Positions 1,264-53,707 of a DNA stretch of 64,000 bases are shown in pieces. Under the pieces are notes generated by a model. The model did no database searches. It was not told the DNA's origin and was given only the letters and a program-made list of their open reading frames with translations. Each line of letters begins with the position of its first letter. The first letter of the stretch is position 1. The position numbers and the translations under genes are program-made. Source of the DNA: Phycisphaerae bacterium RAS1 (GTDB lineage: Bacteria; Planctomycetota; Phycisphaerae; UBA1845; Fen-1342). Where the stretch lies: positions 52,942-116,941 of the forward strand of contig SMLU01000002.1 in NCBI GenBank assembly GCA_007859745.1. The letters are read 5' to 3'.

Positions 1264-2958
1264 ATGGCCCAGCGCTACCTCGTGACCGCCGGCTTGCCTT
1301 ACTCCAATAACCGCCTGCACGTCGGACACATCGCCGGCGCGTACCTGCCGGCCGACATCTTCGTGCGCTACCTGCGCGCCTGCGGACACGACGTCCTCTA
1401 CATCTGCGGAAGCGACGACAACGGCGTCGCGATCGAAATCTCCGCCATGAAAGAGGGCCGCTCGCCGCAGGAAATCTGCACGCATTACCACGAGCGGCAG
1501 AAGCAGGATTTCCTCGGCTTGCGGATCGATTTCGACATCTACGGCGGCACGCACCAGCCAGCGTATCGGAAGCTGCATGAGCAGTTCAGCCAGGATTTCT
1601 TCAAACGAATTCACGAGCGCGGCTTCTTCACCAAGAGACGGCTCAAGCAGCTCTACGATCCCAAGGCCCAGCGCTTTCTGCCGGATCGATACGTGCGCGG
1701 CACTTGCTACCACCCTGACTGCAAGAAACCCGGCGCGACCGGCGACCAGTGCGACCAGTGCGGCCGCATGATCGACCCGCTGCTGCTGATCGAGCCGCGC
1801 AGCGAAATCACCGGCGAGAAGGCCGAGGTGCGCGAGACGACGCACTGGTATCTGCGGCTGAACGACTTCGAAAAACCGCTGGCGGCGTGGCTGGAAAGCA
1901 AGCAGGGCGTCTGGCGCTCGAACGTGCTGAACTTCGCGCTGGGGCAGATCAAGCAGGGACTGCCCGAGCGCGCCATGACGCGCGATATTCAGTGGGGCAT
2001 CCCGGTGCCGCTCGACGATCCCGACGCCGCCGGGAAGGTCGTCTTCGTGTGGTTCGACGCGCCAATCGGCTACATCACGTTTACCGCCGCGCTGTGCGAG
2101 CAGCGTTTCGGCGACCGCGAGGCGTACCGGCAGTGGTGGTGCGATCCGAACACGCCCATTCTGCATTTCATCGGCGAAGACAACACCGTCTTCCACGCCC
2201 TGATCTGGCCGGCGATGCTGATGGCCGAGGCGCAGCAGCATCAGCTTCCGTCCTACGTCGTCGCCAACAACTTTCTGAACCTGCGCAAAGGCGGCGAATT
2301 GGAGAAGATCAGCAAGAGCACCACGCCGCCCGACGCGCCCGTCTGGATCGAAGAGTATCTCAAGAAGTACGACGCCGACGCACTGCGCTACTACCTGACG
2401 GCGCTCGCGCCAGAGACGGCCCGGACGGCGTTCGACTTCGAGGAGTTTGTGAATCGAAACGACGGCGAGCTGGTCGCGGCGCTGGGCAATTTCGTGAATC
2501 GCTGCCTCACCTTCGCCCAGAAGTACTTCGAAAACCGCGTTCCGGACACCTCACCGGCAATCGACGCCGACCGGGCGGTTCTCGCCCGTGGAGACGAGGC
2601 GCTGCGCGCCGTGGGCGAGCACATCGAGGGGCATCGCTTTCGCGCAGCCATCGAGGAGGTCATGGCCTTCTCACGCGCCTGCAATCAGTACTTCGGCCTC
2701 CGCGAGCCGTGGAAAACGCGAAAAGACAACGTGCCCGACTGCGGCGCGGCGATCGCCACGTGCATCCACGCCGTGCAGTATCTCGCGACGCTCTGCGCCC
2801 CGTTCATGCCGTCGGCGGCCGAGCGCATGGCCGCGATGCTGAGCCTGCCGGACGGCTGGAAGGCGTGGCAACCGCCGGCACGCCTCCCCAGCGGCGCGCC
2901 GCTGGGCGAGCCGAAGATTTTGTTTACGAAGCTTTCGCAAGCGGAGGCAGCCAAGTGA
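1264..2958 (+). CDS. metG: Methionyl-tRNA synthetase (short form, no C-terminal EMAP/tRNA-binding domain)
   Basis: Class I aaRS motifs: HVGH as PYSNNRLHVGHIAG and KISKS as KGGELEKISKST. CxxC...CxxC zinc knuckle. ATG at 1264 is in frame with ORF 601-2958. Confidence 0.93.
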   Translation: MAQRYLVTAGLPYSNNRLHVGHIAGAYLPADIFVRYLRACGHDVLYICGSDDNGVAIEISAMKEGRSPQEICTHYHERQKQDFLGLRIDFDIYGGTHQPAYRKLHEQFSQDFFKRIHERGFFTKRRLKQLYDPKAQRFLPDRYVRGTCYHPDCKKPGATGDQCDQCGRMIDPLLLIEPRSEITGEKAEVRETTHWYLRLNDFEKPLAAWLESKQGVWRSNVLNFALGQIKQGLPERAMTRDIQWGIPVPLDDPDAAGKVVFVWFDAPIGYITFTAALCEQRFGDREAYRQWWCDPNTPILHFIGEDNTVFHALIWPAMLMAEAQQHQLPSYVVANNFLNLRKGGELEKISKSTTPPDAPVWIEEYLKKYDADALRYYLTALAPETARTAFDFEEFVNRNDGELVAALGNFVNRCLTFAQKYFENRVPDTSPAIDADRAVLARGDEALRAVGEHIEGHRFRAAIEEVMAFSRACNQYFGLREPWKTRKDNVPDCGAAIATCIHAVQYLATLCAPFMPSAAERMAAMLSLPDGWKAWQPPARLPSGAPLGEPKILFTKLSQAEAAK

Positions 2959-3539
2959 AACGCGCGACCGGCCTTTTATCGCTCATGCTGACGGCCACGG
3001 CACTTCTGACCGGCGGCTGCGGCGACAACCAGGCCGCGGAAGCCGCCAAGACGGCCGCCGCCGCCGCGAAACTGGATCTGAAAATCGCCCAGGCCACGCC
3101 TGAAGAGGCGGTGCGAACGCTCTTCGAGCTGGTTCGAGTCGACCTGGCCGCCGCCGCCAGGCAGGACCGGCCGGCCCAGAAAGTGATCTCCGGCACGCTG
3201 GAGCGCCTGGCGTCCCGCGAGGACATTCACCGTCGCGTGCGGAACATCGCGCGGCTCAGCGGCAAGCCGGCGGACGAGTTCTTTGACAAGGTCATCGGGC
3301 GCTGGAGCGCGGTGCTCGCGCCGTACTACGAAAAGGCCGACCTGGCCGCCATGCGCGTGCTTTCCACGCGAGACGACGGCGGGTATGTCCGCATTCGAAT
3401 CGCCTCGGCTGACCCGCAGGGCCGACCGGCCGGGCTGATGGTGGAGTGCAGCAACGACAGGGGGGCCTGGAAAATCGCCGGCGTCTATTTTGACTCGCCC
3501 GGCGCAGCGTCACAGCCGGCGAGTTCGTCGGCGCCGTGA
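2955..3539 (+). CDS. Lipoprotein, hypothetical
   Basis: GTG at 2955 overlaps the metG stop by 4 nt. Signal peptide plus lipobox LLTGGC. C-terminal part of ORF 1749-3539. Confidence 0.6.
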   Translation: MKRATGLLSLMLTATALLTGGCGDNQAAEAAKTAAAAAKLDLKIAQATPEEAVRTLFELVRVDLAAAARQDRPAQKVISGTLERLASREDIHRRVRNIARLSGKPADEFFDKVIGRWSAVLAPYYEKADLAAMRVLSTRDDGGYVRIRIASADPQGRPAGLMVECSNDRGAWKIAGVYFDSPGAASQPASSSAP

Positions 3540-3567: not shown

Positions 3568-4971
3568 ATGCAGCTTCCGGTTCTCACCGACACCATCGTC
3601 GCGGTTTCGAGCGAATGGACCGCATCCCCGCTGGCGATCATCCGGCTAAGCGGGCCGCGGGCGCTTGAGCTGGTCGAATCCGTCGCCCCTCTTGGCCGAT
3701 CCGAAGGCCGCCGTCTTTCCGAATCCGCCGCGCCAAGCGGCGGGTCGACGTCCACTCGCGCACATCCTGCAGCGTGGCGACGCGCGTCGCTCCGCGTCGA
3801 GAATCAGCCGGCGGCAAAGCGCGATTCTCACGTTCCTTGCGATGTATTCACCTTCGTCGCCCCGCGCAGCTACACCGGGCAGGATCTGGTCGAACTGCAC
3901 ACGATTGGCTGCTTGCCGCTGGTTCGCACAATCGCGGACCAACTCGCGGAGCGGGGGGCGCGACGGGCACTTCCGGGAGAATTCACAGCCCGCGCGGTCC
4001 TGGCCGGGAAAATCCGCCCCGAGCAGGTGGAGACGATTCTCGGGCTGATTCAGGCGGATGACGCGGCTGCGGCGCGGGCGGCGCGGCGCGGGGCGGGCTC
4101 GACGGCTGCGGCGGTGCGGCAGCGCGTCGCCGAGCGCCTCAGCGACGTCCTGGCGCGAGTCGAGGCCGGGATCGACTTTGTGGACGAAGAGGACGTGCGT
4201 TTCATCACGGACGAGGAACTTGCGGCGGAGATCGCTGCGGCGCTGACGGAACTGGATGGGCTGGACCCGCAGGATGTCGCTGATCAAGCCGCGCTGCGTC
4301 CGCACGTGGCGCTGGCGGGTCTGCCGAACGCCGGCAAGAGCACGCTCTACAACGCCCTGGTCGGCGCGGAGCGCGCCATCGTCTCGCCCGTGATCGGCAC
4401 GACGCGCGACGTGATCAGCGCCGAGCTGGTCATCAACGGAGTCCGCCTGATCCTGCAGGACACCGCCGGATTGCACGGCAGCCCGGGCGAGCTTGAGCTC
4501 GCGGCGCACATTGCGGCCGAACGTGCCGCCGACTCGGCGGAGCTGGTGCTGTGGGCGCACGAGGCGCAGGCGGCTTGGTCCTCCGGCGAGCTCGAAGCAC
4601 TTCGGCGGGTCTCGAGCTCGAAGATCGTCGTATTGACGAAGGCGGACCGCGCGGCCCCGTCGTGCGACGCTTCGGACGGTTACGCTCGACGGTTCCTGAT
4701 CGTCAGCGCCGTCAGCGGAAGTGGCATGTCGGAGTTGCGAGACGCGATCGCTTCCGAATTGGCGGTCGAATCGCGGGAGCGCTCGGGTCCGACTTCTGTG
4801 ATCGACGCGGAGGCACGCGCCGCGCTGCGGCGCGCGGCGTCTGCGACGGGCTTGGAAGTCGTTGCAATGGAGCTCCGTGAATCAGTCGAACGACTTCGCG
4901 GTATAAGCGGCGTTGGGTTGGTTGACGATATTCTCGGACGGATTTTTGGGCGGTTTTGCATCGGCAAGTAG
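3568..4971 (+). CDS. mnmE: tRNA modification GTPase MnmE (TrmE), carrying a ~26-aa in-frame insertion derived from a family-A repeat
   Basis: N-terminal domain DTIVAVSS...RLSGP, G-domain GLPNAGKSTL, DTAG, TKAD, and the C-terminal CIGK tetrapeptide. Start MQLPVL at 3568. Confidence 0.9.
   Translation: MQLPVLTDTIVAVSSEWTASPLAIIRLSGPRALELVESVAPLGRSEGRRLSESAAPSGGSTSTRAHPAAWRRASLRVENQPAAKRDSHVPCDVFTFVAPRSYTGQDLVELHTIGCLPLVRTIADQLAERGARRALPGEFTARAVLAGKIRPEQVETILGLIQADDAAAARAARRGAGSTAAAVRQRVAERLSDVLARVEAGIDFVDEEDVRFITDEELAAEIAAALTELDGLDPQDVADQAALRPHVALAGLPNAGKSTLYNALVGAERAIVSPVIGTTRDVISAELVINGVRLILQDTAGLHGSPGELELAAHIAAERAADSAELVLWAHEAQAAWSSGELEALRRVSSSKIVVLTKADRAAPSCDASDGYARRFLIVSAVSGSGMSELRDAIASELAVESRERSGPTSVIDAEARAALRRAASATGLEVVAMELRESVERLRGISGVGLVDDILGRIFGRFCIGK
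3713..3790. repeat. Family-A palindromic repeat lying in frame inside mnmE: intact left arm, degenerate right arm
   Basis: TTTCCGAATCCGCCGCGCCAAGCGGCGGGTCGACG matches the family-A arm. It translates SESAAPSGGSTS...PAAWRRA, the same peptide signature that intergenic A copies give (SEPAAPSGG...PAAWRGGFG). Confidence 0.7.
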
Positions 4972-5367: not shown

Positions 5368-7608
5368 TCAGCGCCGACCGCGGTGTCCCGCGGCGCGCTT
5401 CCCGCGCGGGGCATCACCACGACCGCGCTGCTTCCCCTCACGCAGCTCGCTGACCATTCCGAGCATTCGTCCACGGGCGGGGATCAGCGCGATTTCGCCG
5501 CGAACGTCGTCGACCGCGGCCACCAGCACGCGCACTGCCTGGCCCAGGCATACAATCCGGCGCGATTGGCGGCTGCGGATGACCATGCGCTGGTCGTCGA
5601 ACTCCCAACTCTCGCGGCCGAAGTCGCCGATGCGGATCAGTCCTTCGGCGAGGCTCGGGCGGAGCTGCACGAATGCGCCGAACGATGTCACGCCGGTGAT
5701 CAGCCCGTCGAATTCCTCGCCGACGCGGCTCTTCATCAGCTCCAGCACGAGCAGGCTCTTCAGCTCGCGCTCAGCCTGCTGCGCGCGGCGCTCCGTGGCG
5801 CTGATGTGCCGGCCGATTGACTCCAGGTCTTCCTCCTCCTGGTCGCGCCGCCGATGGCGGGCACGCGCCGCTTCCGATGAGCCGCGAAGCACCTGGTCGA
5901 GCAGCCGGTGTACCGTGAGATCCGCGTAGCGGCGGATGGGGGAAGTGAAGTGGGCATAGTCCTCGCTCGCAAGGGCGAAGTGGCCCTCGTCCGTGGGACG
6001 GTAGACGGCCTGGGCCATCGAGCGCAGCAGCACGAAATGCACCGCCGGCTCCTCGGGCTTGCCGCGAACCGCGTCGAGCAGCTCGCGAATCGTCGCCCGA
6101 TCCAGCACGCGCGGGAGCTGGCGGCCCACCAGCGGCTCGATCTGCACCAGCGCCTTCTGCGCCTCGTCCGGCGGCGGCGGATGCACACGCCGCAGGTGAT
6201 TCACGCCATGCTCGCGAAGAAACCGGCTTACGGCCTCGTTCGCCTCGACCATGAACATTTCAATCAGCGTGTGCGAGAAAGCCGTATCCGCCGCCCCGCT
6301 GCTGATCGGCCGGCCGCCGGCGTCCAACTTGATTTCCAGCTCGGGCAGGTTCAGAACGAGCATCCCCTCCGCCAGCCGGCGCGTGCGGATGCGCTTCGCC
6401 AGCGACTCGGCGTCCTTCAGGAGTTTCAGAAGCGCCGGGTCGAGCCCGCCGTTGCGGCCTTCGAGCACCTCCGTCACCTCGTCGTACGTGAATCGTCGTT
6501 TCGATCGGATGACGCTGCCGGCGAAGCGCGTCGCAATCACTTTTGCTTGCCGGTCGTACGTGATGAACGCGCTCCTGGCGAGCCGCGCCTGGTCGGGTTG
6601 CAGGCTGCAAACGCCGTTCGAGAGCACCTCGGGCAGCATCGGCACGACGTACCCCGGAAAGTAGACGCTGTTGCCGCGCTCGCGCGCCTCGGCGTCCAGC
6701 GCTTCGCCGGGCGTGACGAAGAACGCGACATCCGCAATGTGAACTCCCAGCTCCACGTTTCCGCCGGGCAAATGCGAGAGCGAGATCGCGTCGTCGAAGT
6801 CGCGCGCATCAGCCGGGTCGATCGTGATGGTCAGCAGCTCGCGCAAGTCCGTGCGGCCGGCGACGTCTTCGGGGTCGAAGCGCTGCAGAGCCTCGTGCGC
6901 CGCGCGGCGCACCTCGGCCGGAAACACGTCGCGAATGCCCGCCCGCCGTATCACCGACAGGATCTTCGTCTGCGTCTGTGTCGGGTCGCCCAGCCGCTCC
7001 ACGATCACGCCGCGGACCACGGCCGAGTCAAGCGTGTGCTCGAGCGGCTCGACCACGACCATGTCGCCTGGTTTCGCGCTTTTGGCGGTGGGGTCGTCAA
7101 TCTGCACCATCGGCAGCGCGGCCCGGCCCTGGGGCTGCACGACCCAGGCCCGGCCGCGCCGCTCCAGAACGCCCACCCAGGTCAGCGGTGCACGCTCGAC
7201 GATCTTGATCACTTCGGCCGTCGGCGGACGTCCATCCCGCCCGCGCACCAGCCGCACCTGCACCGTGTCGCCTTCGAGCGCCCCGCCGGTGTCGCCGCGG
7301 CGGACGTACAGATCCTCGCGATCGGCGATTTCGACGAAGCCGTAGCCGTGCCGGGTCGCGCGGAACACGCCGGTCAGCCGGCCCGCGGCCTGCGGCAGCG
7401 CCAGGCTGCGGCCGGGGCCGAGCAGGAGGCGGCCGTCTTCGAGCATGTCGCGTACCAACGCGCGGAAATCGGCGTAGTCGGTTCCGGCAAGCTCAAGTTC
7501 CCGTGCGAGGGTTCGCGCTTTCAGTGGCCGGTCCTGGTGTTGTTCGATATAGTGAAGAATGGCCGAAGGCCAGTCTTGCGGGCTGCGGCCTTGAGAAGAC
7601 TTGGGCAT
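5368..7608 (-). CDS. rnr: Ribonuclease R (RNB-family 3'-5' exoribonuclease with C-terminal S1 domain and basic tail)
   Basis: Motifs DPADARDFDDAIS and VYRPTDEGHFALASEDYAHFTSPIRRYADL; S1 domain. Start MPKSSQ at 7608. The ORF extends to 8127 only as antisense of the ACT gene. Confidence 0.9.
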   Translation of the reverse strand: MPKSSQGRSPQDWPSAILHYIEQHQDRPLKARTLARELELAGTDYADFRALVRDMLEDGRLLLGPGRSLALPQAAGRLTGVFRATRHGYGFVEIADREDLYVRRGDTGGALEGDTVQVRLVRGRDGRPPTAEVIKIVERAPLTWVGVLERRGRAWVVQPQGRAALPMVQIDDPTAKSAKPGDMVVVEPLEHTLDSAVVRGVIVERLGDPTQTQTKILSVIRRAGIRDVFPAEVRRAAHEALQRFDPEDVAGRTDLRELLTITIDPADARDFDDAISLSHLPGGNVELGVHIADVAFFVTPGEALDAEARERGNSVYFPGYVVPMLPEVLSNGVCSLQPDQARLARSAFITYDRQAKVIATRFAGSVIRSKRRFTYDEVTEVLEGRNGGLDPALLKLLKDAESLAKRIRTRRLAEGMLVLNLPELEIKLDAGGRPISSGAADTAFSHTLIEMFMVEANEAVSRFLREHGVNHLRRVHPPPPDEAQKALVQIEPLVGRQLPRVLDRATIRELLDAVRGKPEEPAVHFVLLRSMAQAVYRPTDEGHFALASEDYAHFTSPIRRYADLTVHRLLDQVLRGSSEAARARHRRRDQEEEDLESIGRHISATERRAQQAERELKSLLVLELMKSRVGEEFDGLITGVTSFGAFVQLRPSLAEGLIRIGDFGRESWEFDDQRMVIRSRQSRRIVCLGQAVRVLVAAVDDVRGEIALIPARGRMLGMVSELREGKQRGRGDAPRGKRAAGHRGRR

Positions 7609-8293: not shown

Positions 8294-8364
8294 CCGACGG
8301 ATCGGGAGGAATGGCGAATGGCGAATAGCGAGTCGCGAATCGCAAAGTGCCCTTTGGAATTTCT

Positions 8365-8430
8365 CGGGTGGAACGGGCATCTTGCCCGTTCGTGAGACGG
8401 CGCGAACGGGCGAGACGCCCGTCCCACCCC
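8365..8430. repeat. Family-B palindromic repeat (GGGTGGGACGGGCGTCTCGCCCGTCC ... GGACGGGCGAGACGCCCGTCCCACC)
   Basis: Inverted arms, each arm itself a hairpin. Intergenic, between the ACT gene and ftsK. Confidence 0.8.
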
Positions 8431-8441
8431 AAGGCGCGTCT

Positions 8442-11102
8442 CTAACTCGCCTCGTCCGCCGCCTCGGCCGCCTCTTCCCGGTCGCGCTGGCCGCGGATCG
8501 CCTCCCATTCCTCTTTCGTCACGATCACTTCCCGCGCCTGGCTGCCCTTGTACTCACCGACAATCCCGGCCGCGTACATCTGGTCGATCAGCCGTGAGGC
8601 GCGGCCGTAGCCGACCGTCAGCCGCCGTTGCAGCAGGCTCACCGAGCCGCGGCCGGACTGAATGATCATGTCCACAGCCTCGTCGAACAGCTCGTCACGC
8701 TCTCCGTCCGAGCCGGCCTTGCCCGGGGCGCGGATCAGTTCGGGATGGAATTCGGGCTGACGCTGCTCCTTGCAGTGCCGCACGACGGCTTTCAGCTCCT
8801 CGTCGGAAATGAACGTGCCCTGCGAGCGCACCAGCTTCGACATTCCCGGCGGCAGGAAAAGCATGTCGCCCTGGCCCATCAGCACTTCGCCGCCGTTCTG
8901 ATCGAGCACGATGCGCGAATCCAGCCGCGAGGCGACGCGGAAGCAGATGCGGCTGGGCAGGTTGCTTTTGATGAGGCCGGTGACGACGTTGGCCTGCGGA
9001 CGTTGTGTGCTGACGATCAGGTGGATGCCGACGGCGCGGCTCTTTTGCGCCAGGCGGCAGAGGTAGAACTCGACCTCCTTGGCGGAGGTCATCATCATGT
9101 CGGCCAGCTCGTCGATGACGATGACGATGTAAGGCAGCGTCACCTGGATGCGCGTCATTTCCTCATCAGTGTCGATCTGCAGGCGCGTCTTCAGCTCGTT
9201 GTAACCCAGCCGGTTGTAGCCGCGGATGTCCTTCACGCCGGCCTCGGCCAGGAGAGCGTAGCGCTCGTCCATCTTGGTGGCGGCCCAGTCGAGGATGCCC
9301 TCGGCCTTGCTCATTTCGGTGACGATCGGGCACATCAGGTGCGGCACGTCGCGGTACATCGCCAGCTCGACCACTTTCGGATCGACCATGATGAGCTTGC
9401 ATTCATCAGGTGAGCGCGTCAGCAGAATCGACATGATCACGCTGCTGACGCAGACGCTCTTGCCCGAGCCGGTCGTGCCGGCGATCAGGCAGTGCGGCAT
9501 GCGCGTCAGGTCGGAGACGAGCGGCTGGCCGGAAGCGTCTTTGCCGAGATAGAGCGGCAATCCCATGCCGTCGGCCCGCTGGCCGAAGTTGTGGATGATG
9601 TCCTTGAGGCGGACTTTTTCCTTGTCGAGATTCGGCACTTCGATGCCGATCGTGTTCTTGCCCGGCAGCGGCGCGACGACACGGACGGCGGGCGCCTTGA
9701 GGGCGCGGGCCATGTCGTTGGTCAGCGAGGCGATCTGGCTGACCTTGATACCGGGGGCGAGCTTCAGCTCGAAGACCGTGATGACCGGCCCCGTGTCGAT
9801 CGCGACGACCTGCACTTCGAGGCGGAATTCGTTCAGCGTCTGCTCAAGAATGAACGCCTTTTCGCGGCAGAGGATTTCGATGGCCGACTTGTCGATCGGC
9901 GTCGCGTCCTCCAGAAGCGCCAGCGGCGGGAGGATGTAGTCGCCCTGCACAGTCCGCAGCGGCGCCTTGGGCGGCGGCGATTTCGGCGCGCCGCGAGCCG
10001 CCTCGTCGTCGCCGCGCATCTCGCGGACGACCGGGCCGCTTGAGCCGCGGGCGGCGCCGTTGGACTTGGGCGTCGTGAGCAACGGAAGTCCGCGGTCGGC
10101 GTCTGCGCCGCCCGGCTGATCGACGGCGGCAGCGCCGCCGTCATGAGACTCATCGGGCGCGTCGTCTGCCGCCGATGCCGCGTCATCCGCACGTGGCGCG
10201 GGCGGCGCGAAGCGCTCTCGTGCGGGCGTCGGCGCGAGGCGGTCGCGGTCGGCCGCGCGGTCATCCTCGGCCTCGATTTCCTCGTCGCGTGCGCGGCGGA
10301 GTTGCTCGCGTTCGTCGCGGGTCGGCGCGCGGGGCGCGGGGCGCGACGGCTCATGACGCGAGGCCTTGGGCGGCTCCAGCGCCGGCGTTCGCCCCTTCAG
10401 GGCGACGACGCCGGACATAGCTGCCGCCGCTCCGGCCGAGGCGACCGCGGCGCCGGCATTGGCGACGGCGCTGCCGGCGTTCACGACCACTTCGCTGCCG
10501 CGGACGATCATCGGCATGGAGCGCCGGCCGAGCCAGCCGATCGCTCGCAGCAGGTGGAGCACAATTTCATCGGCTGCCAAGACCGCGCCAACTACGACCG
10601 CGCATAGCAGGAACATCAGCGTTCCACCCCAGCGGAGGTAGTGTTGCAGCGTCGCCCCCGCCGCCGCGCCGAGCACTCCGCCCGGCCCGCTCATCGGGTA
10701 GCGATCGGACGCGCCGATCAGCATCGCGCCCGCGGCGGCGACGGCGGTGGTCACCATCGCCAACCCCACGGCCCGCAATCCCATGTCGGTCAGGTTGACG
10801 CCCTTGCCCCAGGCCCAGATCAGCACGCTGACCAGGAACAGAAACGCGTAGGACCCGATGCCCAGGTAGAAGAGCAGGTGATGGGCGAGCGTCGCGCCGA
10901 CCACGCCGCACAGGTTCTTGGCCGGATCGTTCGCGGGCCAGACGGAGTTCGACGGCGGATCGGCGATGTCATAACTGAGGACGCAGATCCAGATGAAGAG
11001 GCAGACGAGAGCGGCGACAAAGGACAGGCAGAAGCGCAGCGCCGCCTGACGTTCATCCGTGCGTGCCATTGCGGCCATCCATGAACGAGCCGAGTCCGGC
11101 AT
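8442..11102 (-). CDS. ftsK: DNA translocase FtsK
   Basis: N-terminal TM segments, Pro/Ala-rich linker, motor domain GTTGSGKSV, C-terminal gamma wHTH (GRGSVSLLQRRLTVGYGRASRLID). Confidence 0.9.
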   Translation of the reverse strand: MPDSARSWMAAMARTDERQAALRFCLSFVAALVCLFIWICVLSYDIADPPSNSVWPANDPAKNLCGVVGATLAHHLLFYLGIGSYAFLFLVSVLIWAWGKGVNLTDMGLRAVGLAMVTTAVAAAGAMLIGASDRYPMSGPGGVLGAAAGATLQHYLRWGGTLMFLLCAVVVGAVLAADEIVLHLLRAIGWLGRRSMPMIVRGSEVVVNAGSAVANAGAAVASAGAAAAMSGVVALKGRTPALEPPKASRHEPSRPAPRAPTRDEREQLRRARDEEIEAEDDRAADRDRLAPTPARERFAPPAPRADDAASAADDAPDESHDGGAAAVDQPGGADADRGLPLLTTPKSNGAARGSSGPVVREMRGDDEAARGAPKSPPPKAPLRTVQGDYILPPLALLEDATPIDKSAIEILCREKAFILEQTLNEFRLEVQVVAIDTGPVITVFELKLAPGIKVSQIASLTNDMARALKAPAVRVVAPLPGKNTIGIEVPNLDKEKVRLKDIIHNFGQRADGMGLPLYLGKDASGQPLVSDLTRMPHCLIAGTTGSGKSVCVSSVIMSILLTRSPDECKLIMVDPKVVELAMYRDVPHLMCPIVTEMSKAEGILDWAATKMDERYALLAEAGVKDIRGYNRLGYNELKTRLQIDTDEEMTRIQVTLPYIVIVIDELADMMMTSAKEVEFYLCRLAQKSRAVGIHLIVSTQRPQANVVTGLIKSNLPSRICFRVASRLDSRIVLDQNGGEVLMGQGDMLFLPPGMSKLVRSQGTFISDEELKAVVRHCKEQRQPEFHPELIRAPGKAGSDGERDELFDEAVDMIIQSGRGSVSLLQRRLTVGYGRASRLIDQMYAAGIVGEYKGSQAREVIVTKEEWEAIRGQRDREEAAEAADEAS

Positions 11103-11614: not shown

Positions 11615-11848
11615 GGCCGCCCTCCGGGCGGAAGAAAATTGGGGATGGGGTTTGTCTACCAGGGGCTGAAGCCCCCGGCAACCATCGTGCGCCCTCCGGG
11701 CGAAGAGCGTACGCTCCCTGAGCGAAGAGCGCACCCTCTGGGTGAAGAGCGCGCCGTGCGCGCTCCGGGCAGCCCGCCCGGAGGGCGAACGAGCGTTGCC
11801 AGGGGCTTCAGCCCCTGGGTTGCAAGCCGCCACCCCTCTTCTTTTTTC
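11615..11848. repeat. Family-C composite palindromic element, copy 1 (~235 bp), ending in a CCCCTCTTCTTTTTT tract
   Basis: CAGGGGCTGAAGCCCCTGGCAAC...GTTGCCAGGGGCTTCAGCCCCTGG nested inverted repeats; near-identical to copy 2. Confidence 0.8.
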
Positions 11849-11889
11849 CGCCCGGAGTCGCCATGCCGCCATGCGGCACACTGGGTGAT

Positions 11890-13375
11890 GAAAATGGGGT
11901 CGAAGGGTACGCTTTCGAGGCGCGGATTGGGAACGGGTTGAAGTCGTCGCCCAGTGAGCTTTGAGCTCGCCCCGGAGTCTGACTCGGACGCCGTGTTACG
12001 CACACTGATTTGTCGCCCCCGTGTTTGCGGGTGAGGACGCAGGACAGGTTGTTGAATGGATTGGCGTCTCCCGTTTCCAGTGCCGGCGGAGCGGAGGTCA
12101 TGTCATGGAGATTCTGTTTGGCTGCTGCGGCGCGTTGGACATTCATCTGAAGTCGATTCAGGCCCATGTGCGGCGACGGAACGCGAACGGAGTGGTCTCG
12201 TCGTTCGCGCAACGTTTCGGCACGACCACGGCCCAGATTCTGGCGCTGGGCGATTGGCTGGCTGAGCACCAGGTCGAGAAGGTCGCGATGGAGGCGACCG
12301 GCGTGTACTGGAAGCCGATCTGGAATCTGCTCGAGGATCGCTTCTCGTTGATGCTGGTCAATGCCCAGCACTTCCACAACGTGCCCGGACGCAAGACCGA
12401 CGTCAACGACGCAGCCTGGCTGGCGCAGTTGTTGCAGTGCGGCCTGCTGCGCGACAGCTTCGTGCCGCCGCGGCCGCAGCGCGAGCTGCGCGATCTGGCC
12501 CGTCAACGGACCGCGCTGGTTGAGGACAAGAGCCGTGTGGTGAATCGAATCCAGAAGACGTTGGAAGACGCCAACATCAAGCTCTCCTCGGTCGCCAGCG
12601 ACGTGGTCGGCGTCTCGGGTCGGGCCATGATCCGGGCCATGATCGCCGGCCAGCAGGACCCCGCCGCACTGGCCGATCTGGCACGCCAGCGGCTGCGGAC
12701 CAAGATTCCCGAGCTGCGCGAGGCGCTGCGCGGCGGCGTGCGCGCGCACCATCGCTTCATGCTGAAGCAACTGATGGATCAGTTGCAGATGTTGGAAGGA
12801 CAGATCGAGGCCTTCGAAGCGCGGCTCGACGAGCTGCTCTCCAACAACCGGGAGCCGATCGAACGCTTGCGCGAAATTCCCGGCATCGACACGACCGCCG
12901 CGCGTCTGATTCTGTCCGAGATCGGCACGGACATGAGCCGCTTCCCCTCCGCCGCACACCTGTGCGCCTGGGCGGGAGTTTGTCCCGGCAACAACGAAAG
13001 CGCCGGCAAATGCAAGAGCGGCCGAACCCGCGACGGCAACCGCTGGCTGCGGCGCGTGCTGGTGCAAGTGGCCTGGGCCGCGAGCCAGAAGAAGGACTCC
13101 TACTTCTACGCCCAGCACCGCCGCATCGCCTTCCGCCGCGGCATGAAGCGAGCCACGATGGCCGTCGCGCGCAGCATCCTGACCACGCTTTACCACATGC
13201 TGAAAACGGGCTCAGACTTCATCGACCTCGGCGTTCAGTTCTTCGACAAGCTCAAACCGATGCGGGCCGTCAACTCGCTTGTGCGTCGATTGGAGGCGAT
13301 CGGATACCAAGTGCAACTCCGCCCCAAGGTAGCCTAGCCACGCCTCCGGAGGCGTATTTTCAGGACAGGGCGGAC
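11890..13375 (+). mobile_element. IS110-family insertion sequence. Boundaries approximate; has a ~215-bp non-coding leader.
   Basis: Transposase ORF plus a lower-GC upstream leader. Lies between family-C copy 1 and the 3' end of the IS200 tnpA. Confidence 0.6.
12105..13337 (+). CDS. IS110-family transposase (DEDD RuvC-like N-domain plus Transposase_20 C-domain)
   Basis: KVAMEATGVYWKPIW; IPGIDTTAARLILSEIGTDMSRFPSAAHLCAWAGVCPGNNESAGK. ATG at 12105. Confidence 0.9.
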   Translation: MEILFGCCGALDIHLKSIQAHVRRRNANGVVSSFAQRFGTTTAQILALGDWLAEHQVEKVAMEATGVYWKPIWNLLEDRFSLMLVNAQHFHNVPGRKTDVNDAAWLAQLLQCGLLRDSFVPPRPQRELRDLARQRTALVEDKSRVVNRIQKTLEDANIKLSSVASDVVGVSGRAMIRAMIAGQQDPAALADLARQRLRTKIPELREALRGGVRAHHRFMLKQLMDQLQMLEGQIEAFEARLDELLSNNREPIERLREIPGIDTTAARLILSEIGTDMSRFPSAAHLCAWAGVCPGNNESAGKCKSGRTRDGNRWLRRVLVQVAWAASQKKDSYFYAQHRRIAFRRGMKRATMAVARSILTTLYHMLKTGSDFIDLGVQFFDKLKPMRAVNSLVRRLEAIGYQVQLRPKVA

Positions 13376-13380
13376 GAAGC

Positions 13381-13833
13381 TCACTTGAAGACCTCATTCT
13401 CGTCAAACTCAATCCCATGTCGGCGCAGCAGTTCTAGAAACTCCGTTTTGAAATCCATGCGCCGGTGATGCTCCTTTTGCCGCGCGATGTAGGCCTCGAC
13501 CTCGGGCACGGCGGATTTGCTCACAGTGAAGCCGCCGTAACCCTCCTGCCATGAGAAGCGCCCACGCTGCGGCCAGGTCTCGTTGATCCACTTCGAGGAT
13601 CGGCCCTTGATCTGCTGGAGCATTTCCGAATGAGAGAGGTCGGCCCGGTAGCGAATGAGCAGATGAATATGGTCGGGCATGCCGTTGATCGAAAGAAGCG
13701 TGCAGCGCAAGTCGCGAAGGATTCCGCCCATAAATGGGTAGAGGCGCTCTTCCAGTTCGGGAGTGATGAGTATGGCTCGGAGTTTCGTGCTGAACACCGT
13801 GTGGTAGAAGTTCTGCGTGTAAGCGCTGGGCAT
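13381..13833 (-). CDS. tnpA: IS200/IS605-family Y1 HUH transposase TnpA
   Basis: YHTVFSTKLR, HUH motif DHIHLLI, KGRSSKW, and catalytic Y in WQEGYGGFTV, all closely like IS608 TnpA. Start MPSAYTQ at 13833. Confidence 0.85.
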   Translation of the reverse strand: MPSAYTQNFYHTVFSTKLRAILITPELEERLYPFMGGILRDLRCTLLSINGMPDHIHLLIRYRADLSHSEMLQQIKGRSSKWINETWPQRGRFSWQEGYGGFTVSKSAVPEVEAYIARQKEHHRRMDFKTEFLELLRRHGIEFDENEVFK

Positions 13834-13855
13834 GGCGGGCTCCGTCCGCCCTCCG

Positions 13856-14127
13856 GGCGGAAACACGATCCGGGTGGGGCCTGTCTACCAGGGGCTGAAG
13901 CCCCTGGCAACAATCGTGCGCCCTCCGGGCGAAGAGCGATGCTCCTGACCGATCCCAACGGGAACCCGATGGCCCTGGCAACAATCGTGCGCCCCCCCCG
14001 GGAGACGAGCGTGCACCCAACGGGCGAAGAGCGTGTGCGCTCCGGGCAGCCCGCCCGGAGGGCGGACGCTCGTTGCCAGGGGCTTCAGCCCCTGGGCTGC
14101 AAGCCGCCACCCCTCTTCTTTTTTTCC
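13856..14127. repeat. Family-C composite palindromic element, copy 2 (~270 bp, with an internal ~60-bp duplication), abutting the tnpA 5' end
   Basis: Shares more than 200 bp with copy 1, including the hairpin CCAGGGGCTGAAGCCCCTGG and the T-rich tail. Confidence 0.8.
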
Positions 14128-14228: not shown

Positions 14229-15062
14229 ATGGCGCGACAGGACGCACTCACCGCCACGCTGAACGCCCTGCAGGCAGCCGTTGCACAAGGGCTGGCTGGC
14301 TTCGGGCTATTCTGGACTTTTGGCGCACACGCGGCCGCCTACGCCCCGGTCGAGCTGACCACGCGGCGCGGCTGGCATCGGCTGCTGCCGCAGTGTTTCG
14401 CGATCGGCACCAAGTCCGTGCCCGTGATCATGTTGACCGGCATGTTCGTCGGCATGGTGCTCATCGTTCAGGGCTGGAACCAGTTTGACGCCGCCAACCT
14501 GCTCGACCGGCTGGGGTCGATCGTGATCATCTCGGTCGTGTCAGAGCTGGGGCCGGTGTTGGCGGGCGTGATGGTCGCCGGGCGGGTGGGCGGCGCGCTG
14601 ACCGCCGAGCTGGGCACGATGAACGTCACCGAGCAGTTGCTGGCGATGCGCTCGATGGGCGCCGATCCGATCCGATTTCTCGTGACGCCGCGGTTCCTCG
14701 CGTGCCTGCTTCTGACGCCGCTGCTCACGTGCTACGCCGACGTGACCGGCTCACTGGGGGCCTACTTCGTGTACCTGGGCTACGGCGGGGAGTCGGGGCC
14801 CTTCTGGAGCTACACGCGCGATACCGTGCAGGTGTGGGACATCGCCTCGGGCATGACCAAGGCGTTCTGTTTCGGCGGGGCGATTGGGCTGATCAGTTGT
14901 TTCTACGGCTTTAACTGCCGGCCGGGCGCCGAGGGAGTGGGCCAGGCCTGCACGCGGGCGTTCGTGATCAGCTTTATCGTGATTCTCGTGCTCGATTTTT
15001 TCCTGAATCTGGTCATCAACAGCGTGTACGAGCGGCTATACGGCTTCCGGCCGCTGATTTAG
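14229..15062 (+). CDS. mlaE: MlaE-family ABC transporter permease (phospholipid/toluene-tolerance Ttg2B type)
   Basis: About 278 aa with 5-6 TM segments and the conserved LVTPRFLACLL...GGA.GVG signature. No mlaF or mlaD adjacent. Confidence 0.8.
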   Translation: MARQDALTATLNALQAAVAQGLAGFGLFWTFGAHAAAYAPVELTTRRGWHRLLPQCFAIGTKSVPVIMLTGMFVGMVLIVQGWNQFDAANLLDRLGSIVIISVVSELGPVLAGVMVAGRVGGALTAELGTMNVTEQLLAMRSMGADPIRFLVTPRFLACLLLTPLLTCYADVTGSLGAYFVYLGYGGESGPFWSYTRDTVQVWDIASGMTKAFCFGGAIGLISCFYGFNCRPGAEGVGQACTRAFVISFIVILVLDFFLNLVINSVYERLYGFRPLI

Positions 15063-17151: not shown

Positions 17152-17592
17152 ATGGACAGCAATTGGAAGCAGAGTTTCGTCGAGAAGCTGAATCGGGCCC
17201 AGTCGCAGTGGACCAGCAAGTTCACCGAGGTCATGGAATCGCAGGTGTCCGAGACGTTCGAGGACATCCGCCGCTTCGTGCAGGACAACGGCTTTGCGGC
17301 CAGCACTCCGCTGCGCGAGGACTCGCGCCGCTCGTTCAAGTTCGAGCTGGCTGAGAACGCCTACCTGCTGATGATCTTCCGCTCGGTCGGCGTGGGCGAG
17401 TTCGAGGTGCGCAGCGAGAGCTTCGTGCCCGGCCGCGACGCCAAGCTGGCCAAGATGCGCTGCCGGCTGGTGGACGTGGACGAAGCCTGGGCCCGCGACC
17501 AGTTCCAGGCGGCTCTGGACGCGTTCGTCGCGCACCTCGCGGACGAAACCGCGGGCGCGCCGGAGGTAAACGAGGAGCTCGTGCTGGTCTAG
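17152..17592 (+). CDS. Hypothetical protein (146 aa)
   Basis: Clean ORF with coding-like composition. No motif recognised. Confidence 0.5.
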   Translation: MDSNWKQSFVEKLNRAQSQWTSKFTEVMESQVSETFEDIRRFVQDNGFAASTPLREDSRRSFKFELAENAYLLMIFRSVGVGEFEVRSESFVPGRDAKLAKMRCRLVDVDEAWARDQFQAALDAFVAHLADETAGAPEVNEELVLV

Positions 17593-17617
17593 CGAGGAAG
17601 TGGGAAGTGAGAGCGGG

Positions 17618-17732
17618 CTTTCCGAGCCGCGACCGTGAGGGAGCGGAGACTTGAAGAACCGCTTGCTTACGCGCGCGGCTCGGATCTTGCCGCCGCGCGC
17701 GGCTCTGATCTTGCCGCCGCGCGCGGCTCCGA
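17618..17732. repeat. Family-D palindromic repeat (TCCGAGCCGCGACCGTGAGGGAGCGG ... CCGCTTGCTTACGCGCGCGGCTCGGA)
   Basis: Inverted arms with a variable spacer and tandem GATCTTGCCGCCGCGCGCGGCTC sub-repeats. Confidence 0.75.
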
Positions 17733-19027: not shown

Positions 19028-19105
19028 GGTGTGAACTCCTGCGGGTTTTCCGCATGCTAGCGCGCGGCATGCGCAGCCGCAAGCAAACCGGACGCCGCGG
19101 CGGTC

Positions 19106-19206
19106 TTTCCGAACCCGCCGCGCCAAGCGGCGGGTTGACGATCGCGCGCGAGCGGCGCCTCGCAGGCCGGGGAGGTCGACTCGCCGCCTGGCGAGGCGGG
19201 TTCGGA
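19106..19206. repeat. Family-A palindromic repeat (TTCCGAACCCGCCGCGCCAAGCGGCGGGTTGACG ... inverted arm ... GGGTTCGGA)
   Basis: Full two-arm copy, intergenic. Confidence 0.85.
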
Positions 19207-24327: not shown

Positions 24328-24448
24328 GGCGTACTCCGAGTGTCACAAAAGGAATAGTATCGCCCACCGCGCGCGATTGCATCGCGCGGGGAGTGATGGT
24401 GATGCGCCGGGTGTGACCGGAGATTGTCGCGACTCAGCGGGCGAGTCT

Positions 24449-24549
24449 GTCCGAACCCGCCGCGCCAAGCGGCGGGTTGACGACCGTAGGTCTTTTGGCG
24501 CCACACAGGCCGGGGACGTCACCCCGCCGCTTGGCGCGGCGGGTTCGGA
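24449..24549. repeat. Family-A palindromic repeat
   Basis: Full two-arm copy between the STK start and the ispB end. Confidence 0.85.
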
Positions 24550-24585
24550 AATACGGCCGCGTCGGAAGAACGGCCCGCCGTCCGG

Positions 24586-27228: not shown

Positions 27229-27300
27229 GTGAGACGGGCGTCTGGCGCATCTTGCCCGTTCCTGAAGACCGCAGGGACGGGCGAGACGCCCGTCCCACCC
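27229..27300. repeat. Family-B palindromic repeat
   Basis: Intergenic. Confidence 0.8.
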
Positions 27301-28095: not shown

Positions 28096-28140
28096 CGAGC
28101 GGAGATGATACCGCGTTCGGCACGCCGTGCATCAGGATAG

Positions 28141-28266
28141 GAACCGCTGGCTTACGCGCGCGGCTCGGATCACGCGGCTCGGATCTCGCGGGTGGGGCCA
28201 ACATCCGAGCCGCGGCCGTGAGGGAGCGGTCCGGGAGAAGACCGCTTGCTTACGCGCGCGGCTCGG
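28141..28266. repeat. Family-D palindromic repeat
   Basis: Overlaps the 3' end of larA; it supplies the last codons ...RKSEPRA. Confidence 0.75.
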
Positions 28267-29566
28267 ACTTGCGTGCGGCGACGCAGACGTTTCCCGCGTC
28301 ATGGACGCGGACCGCGGACGCGCGCGGCGAATCGCCCGCCGCGGCCAGCGCGGCCTCGATGTCTGGACATAACGTCATTCCGCACAGTGCGGCGGCGTCC
28401 TGCGGAACATGGCGGCTGACGAGAAAAACCCGCACGCCGCGGCCATGCGCGTCGGTCAGATGCCGCAGTTTCACCGCCTTATGATCGCCGAGCCGATAAC
28501 CGTTGGCCGCGACGGTTTGACGTGCGGCGGCGTAGGTGGACGCGGATCGCAGCAGCGCCAGGAAACCGTCGGGCCCGACGCCTTCGCGGCACTCGGCGTC
28601 GAGAATAATGGCGCCGCCATCTCGAACGGCGAGATGGTTGTTTTTCAGCGCCTTGTCGGCCTGATACAGGTTTCGGCTCAGCGGCGGCGCGACGCACAAG
28701 TGCAGGATATCCGCCGGATTCGGAATCTCGTGCGAGAACGTGCGCCGCGCGACGGGCGCGAGCCGATGGAGCGCTTCAAGCGGATCCCCGACGGCACAGG
28801 CGACAAGTGCATCTTGAGCGATGACCTCGTTGATCGCGACCAGCGATTTGCCGGCCGACCGAAGGCTTTCGACGACATGTCGAACGCCGTCATAAACCGG
28901 GTTGCCGTCGAGCCGGAAGAGATCGGAGGCCGGATCGAGCGCGCCGGCGTGGTTCTTCTCGATATCGGCGCGGGCCATGACGCCGATGGTGGCGGTCTTG
29001 TGTGCCCCGGTCAGCCCGGCGAAGTAATGCGGCTCGACGCTGCCGATTGCCAGCAGGCAGCGCGCCTCCGCGACCAGCGGGTGCAGCCGGACGCCGCCAA
29101 ACTCGCGCAGATCGACGGCGTCGCAGTCGTGCCAGTCGATTTGTGCGATCGGCAAGCCGCAGTCGGCGAAGGTGGCGTGCTCGAACGCGGCCCGCTCGGG
29201 CGCGGGGAACTTGTGCGTACCGGTTGCGACAATCGCACGGCAGGGGGGCAGCGCTTGCGCCGCACGTCGGGCGGCTTCGGACAGCGCGAGTAGCGCGGCG
29301 CGGGTCAGCGTGGCGCGGTGAGGATCGTTGACCAGCAGGACCAGCGCGTGTGCGGTGTGTGCGGCGGTCTCAAGAAGCTCCCGCAGTCCGGCGTGGTGCG
29401 AGATTTCGGCGCCCAGCACGTCCGCCGCCAGTCCGGCGTTGCGCGGCGTGATCGGCCCGAATTCCTGCCAGGCGGCCATTGCCGATTCTCCGCGCATCAG
29501 AGCATGTGTTCGCGCGAATCCGGCGATATTGAAGTGCTGTTGGCGGAGATTGTCGAGGCGCGGCAT
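28250..29566 (-). CDS. LarA-like protein (DUF2088 / nickel-pincer lactate racemase family)
   Basis: About 438 aa; resembles LarA-type nickel-pincer racemases (DUF2088) and has conserved His residues, but the assignment is low-confidence. No larB, larC or larE nearby. Confidence 0.55.
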   Translation of the reverse strand: MPRLDNLRQQHFNIAGFARTHALMRGESAMAAWQEFGPITPRNAGLAADVLGAEISHHAGLRELLETAAHTAHALVLLVNDPHRATLTRAALLALSEAARRAAQALPPCRAIVATGTHKFPAPERAAFEHATFADCGLPIAQIDWHDCDAVDLREFGGVRLHPLVAEARCLLAIGSVEPHYFAGLTGAHKTATIGVMARADIEKNHAGALDPASDLFRLDGNPVYDGVRHVVESLRSAGKSLVAINEVIAQDALVACAVGDPLEALHRLAPVARRTFSHEIPNPADILHLCVAPPLSRNLYQADKALKNNHLAVRDGGAIILDAECREGVGPDGFLALLRSASTYAAARQTVAANGYRLGDHKAVKLRHLTDAHGRGVRVFLVSRHVPQDAAALCGMTLCPDIEAALAAAGDSPRASAVRVHDAGNVCVAARKSEPRA

Positions 29567-35299: not shown

Positions 35300-35397
35300 G
35301 GGGCTTCATCATGGGGGCCACGATGCACACGGACAAGCGGAGCGCCGCTTGTCGTGGGTGTCGCCGAAGTTCTCGCCAGACGCCGCCGGCGGGGCCG

Positions 35398-35503
35398 TTT
35401 TTCCGAACCCGCCGCGCCAAGCGGCGGGTTGACGATGGTGGGCGAGCGGCGCGTCACAGCCCGGGGACGTCACCCCGCCGCTCGGCGCGGCGGGTTCGGA
35501 CAG
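35398..35503. repeat. Family-A palindromic repeat
   Basis: Full copy, intergenic. Confidence 0.85.
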
Positions 35504-35564
35504 AGAAAAGGTTGCCCGGCCTTGCCGAGCTTGCTGGTCCACCCCCCCTGGATCAGCCGCACGG

Positions 35565-46174: not shown

Positions 46175-46224
46175 GGCGCGCTGGATGAGCGCCGGACGCG
46201 CACCGAGATTGCTGTGGCGCGTCT

Positions 46225-46312
46225 GATCCGAGCCGCGACCGCGAGGGAGCGGTTCTTCGTCGATCGGAGCGCCGTGCTTTCAGAACCGCGCCCTTACGGT
46301 CGCGGTTCGGAT
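46225..46312. repeat. Family-D palindromic repeat
   Basis: ATCCGAGCCGCGACCGCGAGGGAGCGG...CCGCGCCCTTACGGTCGCGGTTCGGAT. Confidence 0.75.
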
Positions 46313-48328: not shown

Positions 48329-48366
48329 CGCTAACCGGGTGTGCCTGTTTCCGGGCGGGCGGTCTT

Positions 48367-48488
48367 CTTTCCGAACCCGCCGCGCCAAGCGGCGGGGTGA
48401 GGTGCGCGCTGTGCTCGGCGTCAAGGTACGACGCGCCGCTGCGAACGCGCCCGGACGTCACCCCGCCGCTTGGCGCGGCGGGTTCGGA
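48367..48488. repeat. Family-A palindromic repeat
   Basis: Full copy with a longer spacer. Confidence 0.85.
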
Positions 48489-48586
48489 CAAGCCGGCGTG
48501 GTTGTCGGAGTTTCCGGGCACACGCAGCTAACGCGACCGTCCGTTCCCGCTTGACTTCCTGCGACAATATGTTACCATTTAGTCAC

Positions 48587-49408: not shown

Positions 49409-49452
49409 CCGGAGTTGAGACCGCGCGTGCAAGGAAGCTGTCCCAAAACTCC

Positions 49453-49517
49453 TTCCGAGCCGCGACCGTGAGGGAGCGGAGCCTGAAGAACCGCTTGCTT
49501 ACGCGCGCGGCTCGGAT
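49453..49517. repeat. Family-D palindromic repeat
   Basis: TTCCGAGCCGCGACCGTGAGGGAGCGG..CCGCTTGCTTACGCGCGCGGCTCGGA. Confidence 0.75.
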
Positions 49518-50755: not shown

Positions 50756-50798
50756 TCGGCGGTAGCGCTGGTATAGCCAATCAGAATTGGTGCATCAT

Positions 50799-53700: not shown

Positions 53701-53707
53701 AAAGTTC

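Follow-up and report, generated by a model that had tools for sequence, protein, structure and literature searches.

A candidate REPtron-like Y1 nuclease locus with an IS110 element inserted in one of its palindromes in Phycisphaerae bacterium RAS1

The locus and its two palindromes

We have analyzed a nested arrangement of mobile elements in a 64-kb stretch of DNA from Phycisphaerae bacterium RAS1 (contig SMLU01000002.1; 64,000 nucleotides), hereafter the window. A small gene encoding a Y1/HUH nuclease lies there between two palindromic repeats, C1 and C2, and an IS110-family insertion sequence (IS) separates most of C1 from the gene. REPtrons are systems that combine repetitive extragenic palindromic (REP) repeats, also found as bacterial interspersed mosaic elements (BIME) or as REP doublets forming hairpins (REPIN), with the gene of a REP-associated tyrosine transposase (RAYT, TnpA-REP) (PMC2817692, PMC3333891, PMC3116915). 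In our view this is likely a REPtron-like locus into which an RNA-guided IS110 element has jumped. The nested arrangement is real, both of its components belong to known kinds, and the locus is in this sense largely ordinary. On the plus strand its features are ordered as follows, with a gap of 12 nt between the IS110 element and the nuclease gene.

11615-11855, plus strand: C1, a REPIN/BIME-like imperfect palindrome (alignment with C2, repeat families D7/D12/D13, inverted pair I4)
11856-13368, plus strand: IS110-family insertion sequence, 1511 bp plus a second copy of the AG core
12105-13337, plus strand: IS110 DEDD/serine recombinase gene, 410 aa (domain matches)
13381-13833, minus strand: Y1/HUH nuclease gene (tnpA), 150 aa, IS200-like "subclass 1.2" (Pfam, NCBIfam, neighbors in the PDB, motifs)
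13841-14127, plus strand: C2, the second REPIN/BIME-like palindrome

An earlier note on this DNA had described the same succession of genes, the families of both transposases and the two direct copies of C, and all of them are present where it placed them.

Each copy of C consists of one module and its inverse, with degenerate H3-like units of 22-24 nt in between. The module begins with the hairpin H1, (CC)GCCC-TCC-GGGC(GG), and a purine-rich spacer of about 25 nt. The hairpin H2, CCAGGGGC-TGAA-GCCCCTGG, comes next, followed by the tetranucleotide CAAC, which reads GTTG on the other strand, and by about 8 nt that lead to the third hairpin, H3 (GCGCCC-TCC-GGGCG). In C1 the complete order is H1-spacer-H2-CAAC-H3, degenerate 22-nt H3-like units, H3'-GTTG-H2'-spacer and the left arm of H1'. 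The parts of both copies are located as follows.

11617-11631, plus strand: H1 of C1, CCGCCC-TCC-GGGCGG (reading of the sequence)
11659-11682, plus strand: H2 of C1, CCAGGGGC-TGAA-GCCCCCGG, plus CAAC, the GTTG foot of the opposite strand
11795-11818, plus strand: GTTG foot and H2' of C1, which forms an inverted pair with H2 (pairs I4, I18)
11848-11855, plus strand: left arm of H1', CCGCCCGG, the target of IS110
13369-13373, plus strand: right arm of H1', GGCGG, 7 nt from the tnpA stop codon
13846-13860, 13888-13907 and 13918-13931: H1, H2 and H3 of C2
near 13972-14010: an extra degenerate half-unit of C2
14052-14064, 14072-14075 and 14076-14095: H3', GTTG and H2' in the inverse half of C2

C1 and C2 are direct copies with 81% column identity; the indels are found in the center, and the outer blocks are nearly identical (left 98 nt at 87%, right 98 nt at 93%). 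The H2 hairpin CCAGGGGCTGAAGCCCCTGG is found in the 64-kb window at 11659, 11799, 13888 and 14076 only, i.e., as one inverted pair per copy of C. In the shuffled window 0.02 matches are expected, and none of 100 shuffles reached the observed count. The short hairpin motif GCCCGGAGGGC has 6 intact sites in the window against 0.2 expected, all of them within C. Folded as single-stranded DNA (ssDNA), C2 forms a single long imperfect hairpin (z = -8.9), and C1 with its last hairpin restored folds from end to end (z = -13.1). This long-hairpin fold is the shape of a REPIN/BIME doublet. A scan for promoters and terminators between 11400 and 14400 detected no terminators and a single weak promoter-like site, and thus the possibility that the hairpins act as terminators gains no support.

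The IS110 element and its bridge RNA

The open reading frame (ORF) of the IS110 element contains the domains DEDD_Tnp_IS110 (PF01548; 83.4 bits) and Transposase_20 (PF02371; 82.6 bits), and it scores 284 bits, against a cut-off of 140, with the NCBIfam model NF033542, "IS110 family RNA-guided transposase". The 410-aa protein with the ATG start is the annotated one; a look-up of a 438-aa version with a GTG start came back blank. In a short-read assembly of the same organism the segment 11856-13368 constitutes a separate contig of 1513 bp with 0 mismatches, and three RAS1 accessions are recorded for the identical protein. It follows that there is more than one copy of the element and that the definition of its ends does not depend on our reading of the locus. 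The AG core is present at both junctions (11856-11857 and 13367-13368), the left end is long (249 nt) and the right end short (about 30 nt), there are no terminal inverted repeats, and the homology of the relatives to the element starts at the identical base, namely the AG.

The contig of the element in the short-read assembly (L001) ends at 13368 and that of the flank (L002) starts at 13349, an overlap of 20 nt. Logan assemblies are assumed to use k = 31. This overlap is shorter than expected for that value, and a short unitig may be missing (window 13349-13379), in which case the right flank may have about 10 nt (GGCGGACGAA) in common with that of another IS110 copy.

The excision of 11856-13366 restores CCGCCCGGAGGGCGG, in which CCGCCCGG is joined to AG-GGCGG, and the restored site, CCGCCC-GGA-GGGCGG, is the inverse of H1. 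The same hairpin is found unsplit, at an equal distance from the tnpA stop codon, in two loci that carry close homologues of the Y1 protein (L129 and L130, with 91% and 89% aa identity, respectively), where the empty site reads TGA gcttcgtcc GCCCTCCGGGC gg. The intact hairpin of these two loci, together with the AG junctions, places the IS110 element within the palindrome, in the loop of the terminal hairpin of C1, CCGCCC-GG[AG]G-GGCGG. The earlier note had located the element precisely between the palindrome and the 3' end of tnpA, a position that has to be moved into this loop. C1 extends further than it supposed, its outermost hairpin being split into 11848-11855 and 13369-13373. The preference of IS110 elements for palindromes that it invoked is confirmed.

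To characterize the left end we aligned it with the left ends of six metagenomic elements whose transposases are 52-79% identical to that of the window, and the following elements were located.

11940-12075, plus strand: bridge-RNA region within the 249-nt left end, with two covarying helices
11970-11977, plus strand: target guide CCCCGGAG, equal to the left flank plus core (GCCCGG+AG) at 7/8 positions
12040-12047, plus strand: donor guide CAGGACAG, equal at 8/8 positions to the terminal 6 nt of the right end followed by the AG core
11947-11953, plus strand: UCGCCCA, tentatively a short target guide, with its complement GGGCG(G) in the right flank

One helix pairs 11942-11946 with 11980-11984, the other 11986-11992 with 12063-12069, and each of them closes a loop that bears a guide. 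The consensus fold computed with RNAalifold for the 6 relatives contains compensatory changes in 12 of its 31 pairs, and helix B, of 7 bp, shows three different pair types. The target is CCCGG, which lies just upstream of the AG in the window and also in L126 and L128, two independent insertions of a relative that has the same guide. In three other relatives the guide differs and the flank differs with it: the guide at the aligned position is CGTGTAAG in L124, whose left flank ends in CGTGTAAG; CATAGGAG in L125, whose left flank ends in AATAGGAG; and GCCGGTCAG in L123, whose left flank ends in GCCGGTCAG. Altogether, the target guide corresponds to the element's own left flank in 5 elements that represent 4 different guide sequences. 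The donor guide shifts in the same manner with the right ends, being GTGTTAG in L124 and CGAAGGAG in L125. When all guides were compared with all DNA sites, cognate pairs matched at 7-8 of 8 positions and non-cognate pairs at 2-5 of 8, two of these being the shared core. The comparison of these relatives shows that the left end of the IS110 element encodes a predicted bridge RNA with a target guide and a donor guide. A target-site motif at the junctions, which the earlier note had considered, is also present: it reads CCCGG-AG-GGCG, and the guide matches its left half at 7/8.

Other candidate guides were discarded. GGACGCC, taken as a short target guide at the position known from IS621 (3' loop side), is the helix strand that pairs with GGCGUCU. 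This latter sequence, taken as a right-donor guide, is a strand of a covarying helix and does not track the left-end sequence in L123-L125. A 9-nt reverse-complement match between the leader (11953-11961) and the flank (13377-13385) lies too far from the core, is part of a local hairpin and is attributed to chance.

If the element works like IS621, the complex of recombinase and RNA would pair a circular copy of the IS with any CCCGG-AG-GGCG site, and recombination would occur at the AG (CT) core of the paired site. Since CCCGG-AG-GGCG is the REP hairpin itself, the REP family would supply ready-made landing sites for the element.

A related IS110 element lies in a metagenome contig of 1603 nt (L123). 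About 100 nt past its right end, this contig shows the left target and the start of another copy, a pattern that corresponds either to two adjacent insertions or to a wrap-around of the assembly.

The Y1 nuclease and its module in other genomes

The ORF of the Y1 gene matches the Pfam domain Y1_Tnp (PF01797) with 96 bits. Its HUH and Tyr residues align to those of 2F4F and 2XM3, the nearest structures in the PDB being IS200-family enzymes, and the motifs DHIH, WQ and YIARQKEHH are conserved in seven homologues. Subclass 1.2 of the Y1 proteins was defined by the motifs DH[IV]H, WQ and Y---Q--HH (YI..QKEHH), a conserved C-terminal tail and a median length of 148 aa; its members are close to the IS200 transposases, have a low copy number and were described without IS properties (Quentin et al., 2018; PMC6006769). 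Judged from these published motifs rather than from the hidden Markov model of those authors, the sequence of the RAS1 protein places it in subclass 1.2. Counting accessions of the exact protein, RAS1 has one, on a single contig. Many relatives with 80-91% identity are found, and every one of them is 150 aa long. In the homologue of a Phycisphaeraceae metagenome-assembled genome (MAG) (L066, 1498-1944, minus strand) the reading frame is interrupted by a stop codon immediately ahead of the catalytic Tyr motif, and this is either a pseudogene or a sequencing error.

The H1 hairpin of C2 ends 13 nt upstream of the start codon of the Y1 gene, just before GGAG (window 13834-13860), and therefore the 5' untranslated region and any promoter must lie within the repeat cluster. 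This is reminiscent of the translational control of IS200.

The exact H2 20-mer was then searched for in one genome per species (loci L003-L122). It is present in at least 120 stretches of MAGs from Phycisphaerae, other Planctomycetota, Verrucomicrobiota, Acidobacteriota and a few other phyla, reaching at least 18 loci in one Verrucomicrobiota genome, at least 13 in a Planctomycetales genome and at least 10 in a Phycisphaerales genome. In these three most-hit genomes the gene is found at 0-1 of the H2 loci per genome. The architecture of the module is also maintained: a perfect hairpin starts at most 16 nt 3' of H2 in 98 of 133 instances and another one lies within 60 nt 5' of H2 in 104 of 133, and CTAC forms the foot in 43 instances, CAAC in 34 (77/133 together), i.e., GTAG or GTTG on the other strand. 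The flanking hairpins differ in sequence between phyla and keep their place, as illustrated by GTCGC-TCC-GCGAC in a Verrucomicrobiota MAG. Among the hairpins of the form CCRG-N4-TGAA-N4-CYGG in the window and the fetched loci, the inner stem is fully paired in 167 of 174, including 22 hairpins that carry 8 variant stem sequences. It is worth recording that the H2 20-mer is identical across phyla while the neighboring hairpins differ by lineage, an unusually strong conservation for a REP. In a Planctomycetota MAG (L026, 69-450) at least five H1-H2 modules form a tandem array with a period of 72 nt.

Homologues of the Y1 gene were found at seven of the scanned H2 loci, and two more were reached via the protein. 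At every readable homologue locus there is an inverted module upstream of the gene and a forward module downstream, their feet facing away from the gene. This layout is shared by L071, L073, L023, L079, L129 and L130 (59-91% aa identity) and also by the Verrucomicrobiota MAG L036 (42% aa identity). The RAS1 gene has the same orientation, with an inverted module just upstream and a forward one just downstream, and each of these inner modules is paired with a further inverted module, yielding the two palindromes of about 250 bp, C1 and C2. Close relatives differ in how many modules lie beside the gene, with one in L130 and three in L129. Group II intron RNA domains and a fragment of a GIIM maturase (2737-3253 and 6011-6208) lie in L129 a few kb from the Y1 homologue.

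The inverted flanking repeats, the GT[A/T]G foot, the doublets, the single gene and the many copies without a gene together lead us to the REPtron interpretation. By analogy, the Y1 protein is presumed to be the enzyme that processes the REPs. As TnpA-REP and the IS200/IS605 enzymes do, it would bind the H2 hairpin and its foot in ssDNA, and it would then cut and rejoin the DNA, so that modules or doublets would be copied across the genome and the gene would stay single. The link between the hairpins of C and the Y1 protein that the earlier note had proposed is borne out by the same module flanking homologues elsewhere. Its further suggestion, that the locus is the source or mobilizer of one repeat family, is supported at the sequence level by module copies dispersed in the genomes whose homologues are module-flanked. 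Copies of C without an IS200 gene, which it would have taken as an argument against its proposal, do occur in related genomes, but such copies are expected for non-autonomous REPs and leave the role of mobilizer unrefuted.

A number of observations weigh against the interpretation of the locus as a REPtron-like system hit by an RNA-guided element. The Y1 protein exceeds the cut-off of the NCBIfam IS200 model (NF033573; 72.7 bits vs. 55) and stays below that of the REP-associated model (NF047646; 31.4 bits vs. 80), the TnpA-REP of Escherichia coli is absent among its PDB matches, and it has Y---Q--HH in place of the class-2 motif Y---NP of TnpA-REP. Subclass 1.2 was described without associated REPs and mostly from Cyanobacteria and Bacteroidetes (PMC6006769). 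Searches with the H2 hairpin and the GCCCGGAGGGC motif revealed no module away from this locus within the 64-kb window, and the dispersal observed is that in related genomes. Y1 homologues that are 89-91% identical sit in different gene neighborhoods, and thus vertical inheritance is without support; the Y1 gene and its inner modules may move, or be transferred, as a unit. Concerning the bridge RNA, the leader folded as a single sequence is no better than its shuffles (z = +1.07), which makes the comparative fold the only informative one, and no right-donor guide was found in the leader comparison. The location of the short right-target guide (UCGCCCA) is suggestive only, with cognate matches of 5/7 in the window, 6/7 in L123, 5/7 in L124 and 1/7 in L125, and one non-cognate match of 5/7.

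The genes that border the RAS1 locus are the following.

8442-11102, minus strand: FtsK-like gene, neighbor on the side of C1
about 14230-15062, plus strand: MlaE-like gene, neighbor on the side of C2

No FtsK, MlaE or saccharopine dehydrogenase genes were found beside the Y1 homologues.

In a first alternative, the inverted module, the gene and the forward module (about 670 bp) form a mobile element bounded by terminal inverted repeats (TIR), i.e., TIRtron-like, next to which the outer halves of C have accumulated as solo derivatives. In fact, the inner modules are inverted repeats of about 95 bp that abut the start and stop codons, and they delimit a minimal unit that is common to the window, L129 and L130 despite the different surrounding genes. 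However, the two arms conserve only the hairpins, their spacers being strongly different, the source genome has no second copy of the unit on record, and no target-site signature can be defined. We think this alternative unlikely.

The second alternative, which the earlier note had favored, takes the Y1 gene and C as an autonomous IS of the IS200/IS605 type, the hairpins of C being its subterminal left and right ends (LE/RE), or a derived palindrome-associated transposable element (PATE) or miniature inverted-repeat transposable element (MITE). The score above the IS200 cut-off, the IS200-family structures and the different genomic contexts of close homologues are in agreement with such an element. 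End hairpins of IS200/IS605 elements are direct, and a canonical IS200 is present in several identical copies. In contrast, the modules that flank the RAS1 gene are mutually inverted, the exact Y1 protein has one accession vs. three for the IS110 protein, and Y---Q--HH is the signature of a subclass described without IS properties; moreover, the gene is missing next to most of the module copies in related genomes, and the number of modules beside the gene is variable. The inverted modules, the single protein accession and the GT[A/T]G REP foot speak against C being the LE/RE of a canonical IS200, and we regard this alternative as distinctly improbable.

The module also resembles a family that has been described as RNA. 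The H2+H3 part of C2 and its counterpart in C1 match the Rfam family RF01687 (Acido-Lenti-1) below threshold, with 22.3 bits for C2 and 16.1 bits for the other copy (gathering score 37), whereas the modules in L036 and L025 reach 38.5-48.3 bits, above the gathering score.

11659-11702 and 13888-13931: RF01687-like segments in the window, below threshold
L036, 1758-3503: RF01687 matches, above threshold
L025, 4593-4654 and 6608-6654: RF01687 matches, above threshold

The modules of the window are thus relatives of RF01687 by architecture and not members by score. Matches of the window to the Rfam families mir-1181 and SorX had E-values above 1 and are attributed to chance. The seed of RF01687 comprises 89 sequences, many of them clustered, including members from Rhodopirellula baltica and UGAA loops (PMC2864571), and the authors of the motif remarked that it is sometimes near group II introns, and nothing more (Weinberg et al., 2010; PMC2864571). 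Sequence comparison suggests that what was described as Acido-Lenti-1 is probably the RNA view of a REP family. A broader proposal, that family C's module is part of a REP superfamily that spans phyla and is filed as "Acido-Lenti-1 sRNA" (small RNA), with a subclass-1.2 Y1 nuclease as the cognate enzyme, seems to us evenly balanced. The reverse view, that the modules are genes or elements of a structured RNA and lie beside the Y1 gene incidentally, has in its favor the scores in L036 and L025, the weak matches in the window and the covariation of the stems, but we find it hardly credible. Modules are found on either strand, arranged as inverted doublets and as tandem arrays; in several phyla they lie on both sides of the Y1 gene; their foot, GT[A/T]G, is of the REP type; and no promoter-like or terminator-like sites accompany them in the window. 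As to covariation, it is equally expected for a DNA hairpin recognized by a Y1 enzyme.

Other repeat families were observed in the window. A second palindromic family (TTCCGAACCCGCCGCGCCAAGCGGCGGGTTGACG; D1/D3/D5/D9) appears mostly as inverted doublets of about 115 nt, REPIN-like, and is commoner in the window than family C. A third palindromic family (D2/D11/D19) is made of GGGTGGGACGGGCGTCTCGCCCGTCCC and its inverse, and a fourth family (CCGAGCCGCGACCGTGAGGGAGCGG / GAACCGCT.GCTTACGCGCGCGGCTCGGAT; D4/D6/D10/D14) partly forms tandem arrays of 39 nt.

3707-3760, 19093-19206, 24439-24560, 35386-35504, 48351-48501 and 62557-62686: second family
8360-8432, 27247-27300, 44661-44735, 49918-49989, 50789-50922 and 54318-54390: third family
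17588-17685, 28137-28268, 46209-46312, 49421-49517, 52159-52234, 53697-53841 and 59366-59423: fourth family

Comparison with known systems

The RAS1 gene resembles the IS200/IS605 elements, such as IS608 and ISDra2, in that a small gene for a protein with a Y1/HUH fold, a catalytic Tyr and the HUH motif lies by short hairpins. Unlike in these elements, the ends are inverted, the gene is present in a single copy, there is no tnpB, and the protein has the subclass-1.2 signature. The resemblance to subclass 1.2 itself is close, as the protein has 150 aa (median 148), the motifs DH[IV]H/WQ/YI..QKEHH, the C-terminal tail and a low copy number; the differences are that the RAS1-type genes belong to Planctomycetota and Verrucomicrobiota and have REP-like modules on both sides. 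The RAS1 annotation "Transposase IS200 like protein" would be better replaced by that of a REP-associated nuclease, whose repeats would be the 250-bp palindromes.

Earlier work had described both GTAG-tagged REPs and REPtrons from Planctomycetes and Verrucomicrobia (Di Nocera et al., 2013; PMC3733652). As in known REPtrons, a single-copy Y1/HUH gene lies here between inverted, short, GC-rich hairpins with a 5' GT[A/T]G foot, the hairpins are paired into long palindromic doublets, and many copies without a gene exist in related genomes. Unlike the enzymes of REPtrons, the RAS1 protein lacks the class-2 Y---NP, falls below the NCBIfam cut-off for RAYT and belongs to the IS200-proximal subclass 1.2; the RAS1 repeat unit has three hairpins, whereas a REP has one, and the H2 20-mer is identical across phyla. 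The novelty is modest: a subclass-1.2 nuclease that appears to be associated with REPs, an association that the paper defining the subclass did not find, and REPs that correspond to the Acido-Lenti-1 motif.

With RF01687 the module shares an 8-bp hairpin with a 4-nt loop, GGCUA/CUAC, about 8 nt and a 5-bp hairpin. The difference lies in that Rfam files the family as an sRNA gene, and the context found here points to a REP at the DNA level. These side observations could provide an enzyme for an orphan Rfam motif and repeats for an orphan nuclease subclass. If the broader proposal is true, a further REPtron lineage would have arisen inside the IS200 clade itself, an Rfam RNA family would have to be re-annotated as mobile repeats acting at the DNA level, and a REP hairpin would have kept the same 20 nt in Planctomycetota, Verrucomicrobiota and Acidobacteriota.

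Concerning the IS110 element, insertion into REPs is a known habit of its family, for which diverse bridge-RNA structures have been noted, and the left target and left donor guides of IS621 pair with the bottom strand, core included (PMC11208160, PMC11208158). The RAS1 element resembles IS621 and the IS110 group in its DEDD and Transposase_20 domains, its long left end and short right end without terminal inverted repeats, the 2-nt core at both junctions, the loop guides identical to the target flank and to the end of the element, and a REP hairpin as the target. Two traits distinguish its subgroup from IS621: the core, read along the transposase strand, is AG (CT on the opposite strand), and the long guides that contain the core are on the 3' side of the loops, whereas those of IS621 are on the 5' side. 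The IS110 annotated in RAS1 can be described as an RNA-guided element whose target would be the REP repeat, and it offers a clean natural example of a bridge-RNA target guide that corresponds to one half of a REP hairpin, where one selfish repeat family would provide the landing pads for another element.

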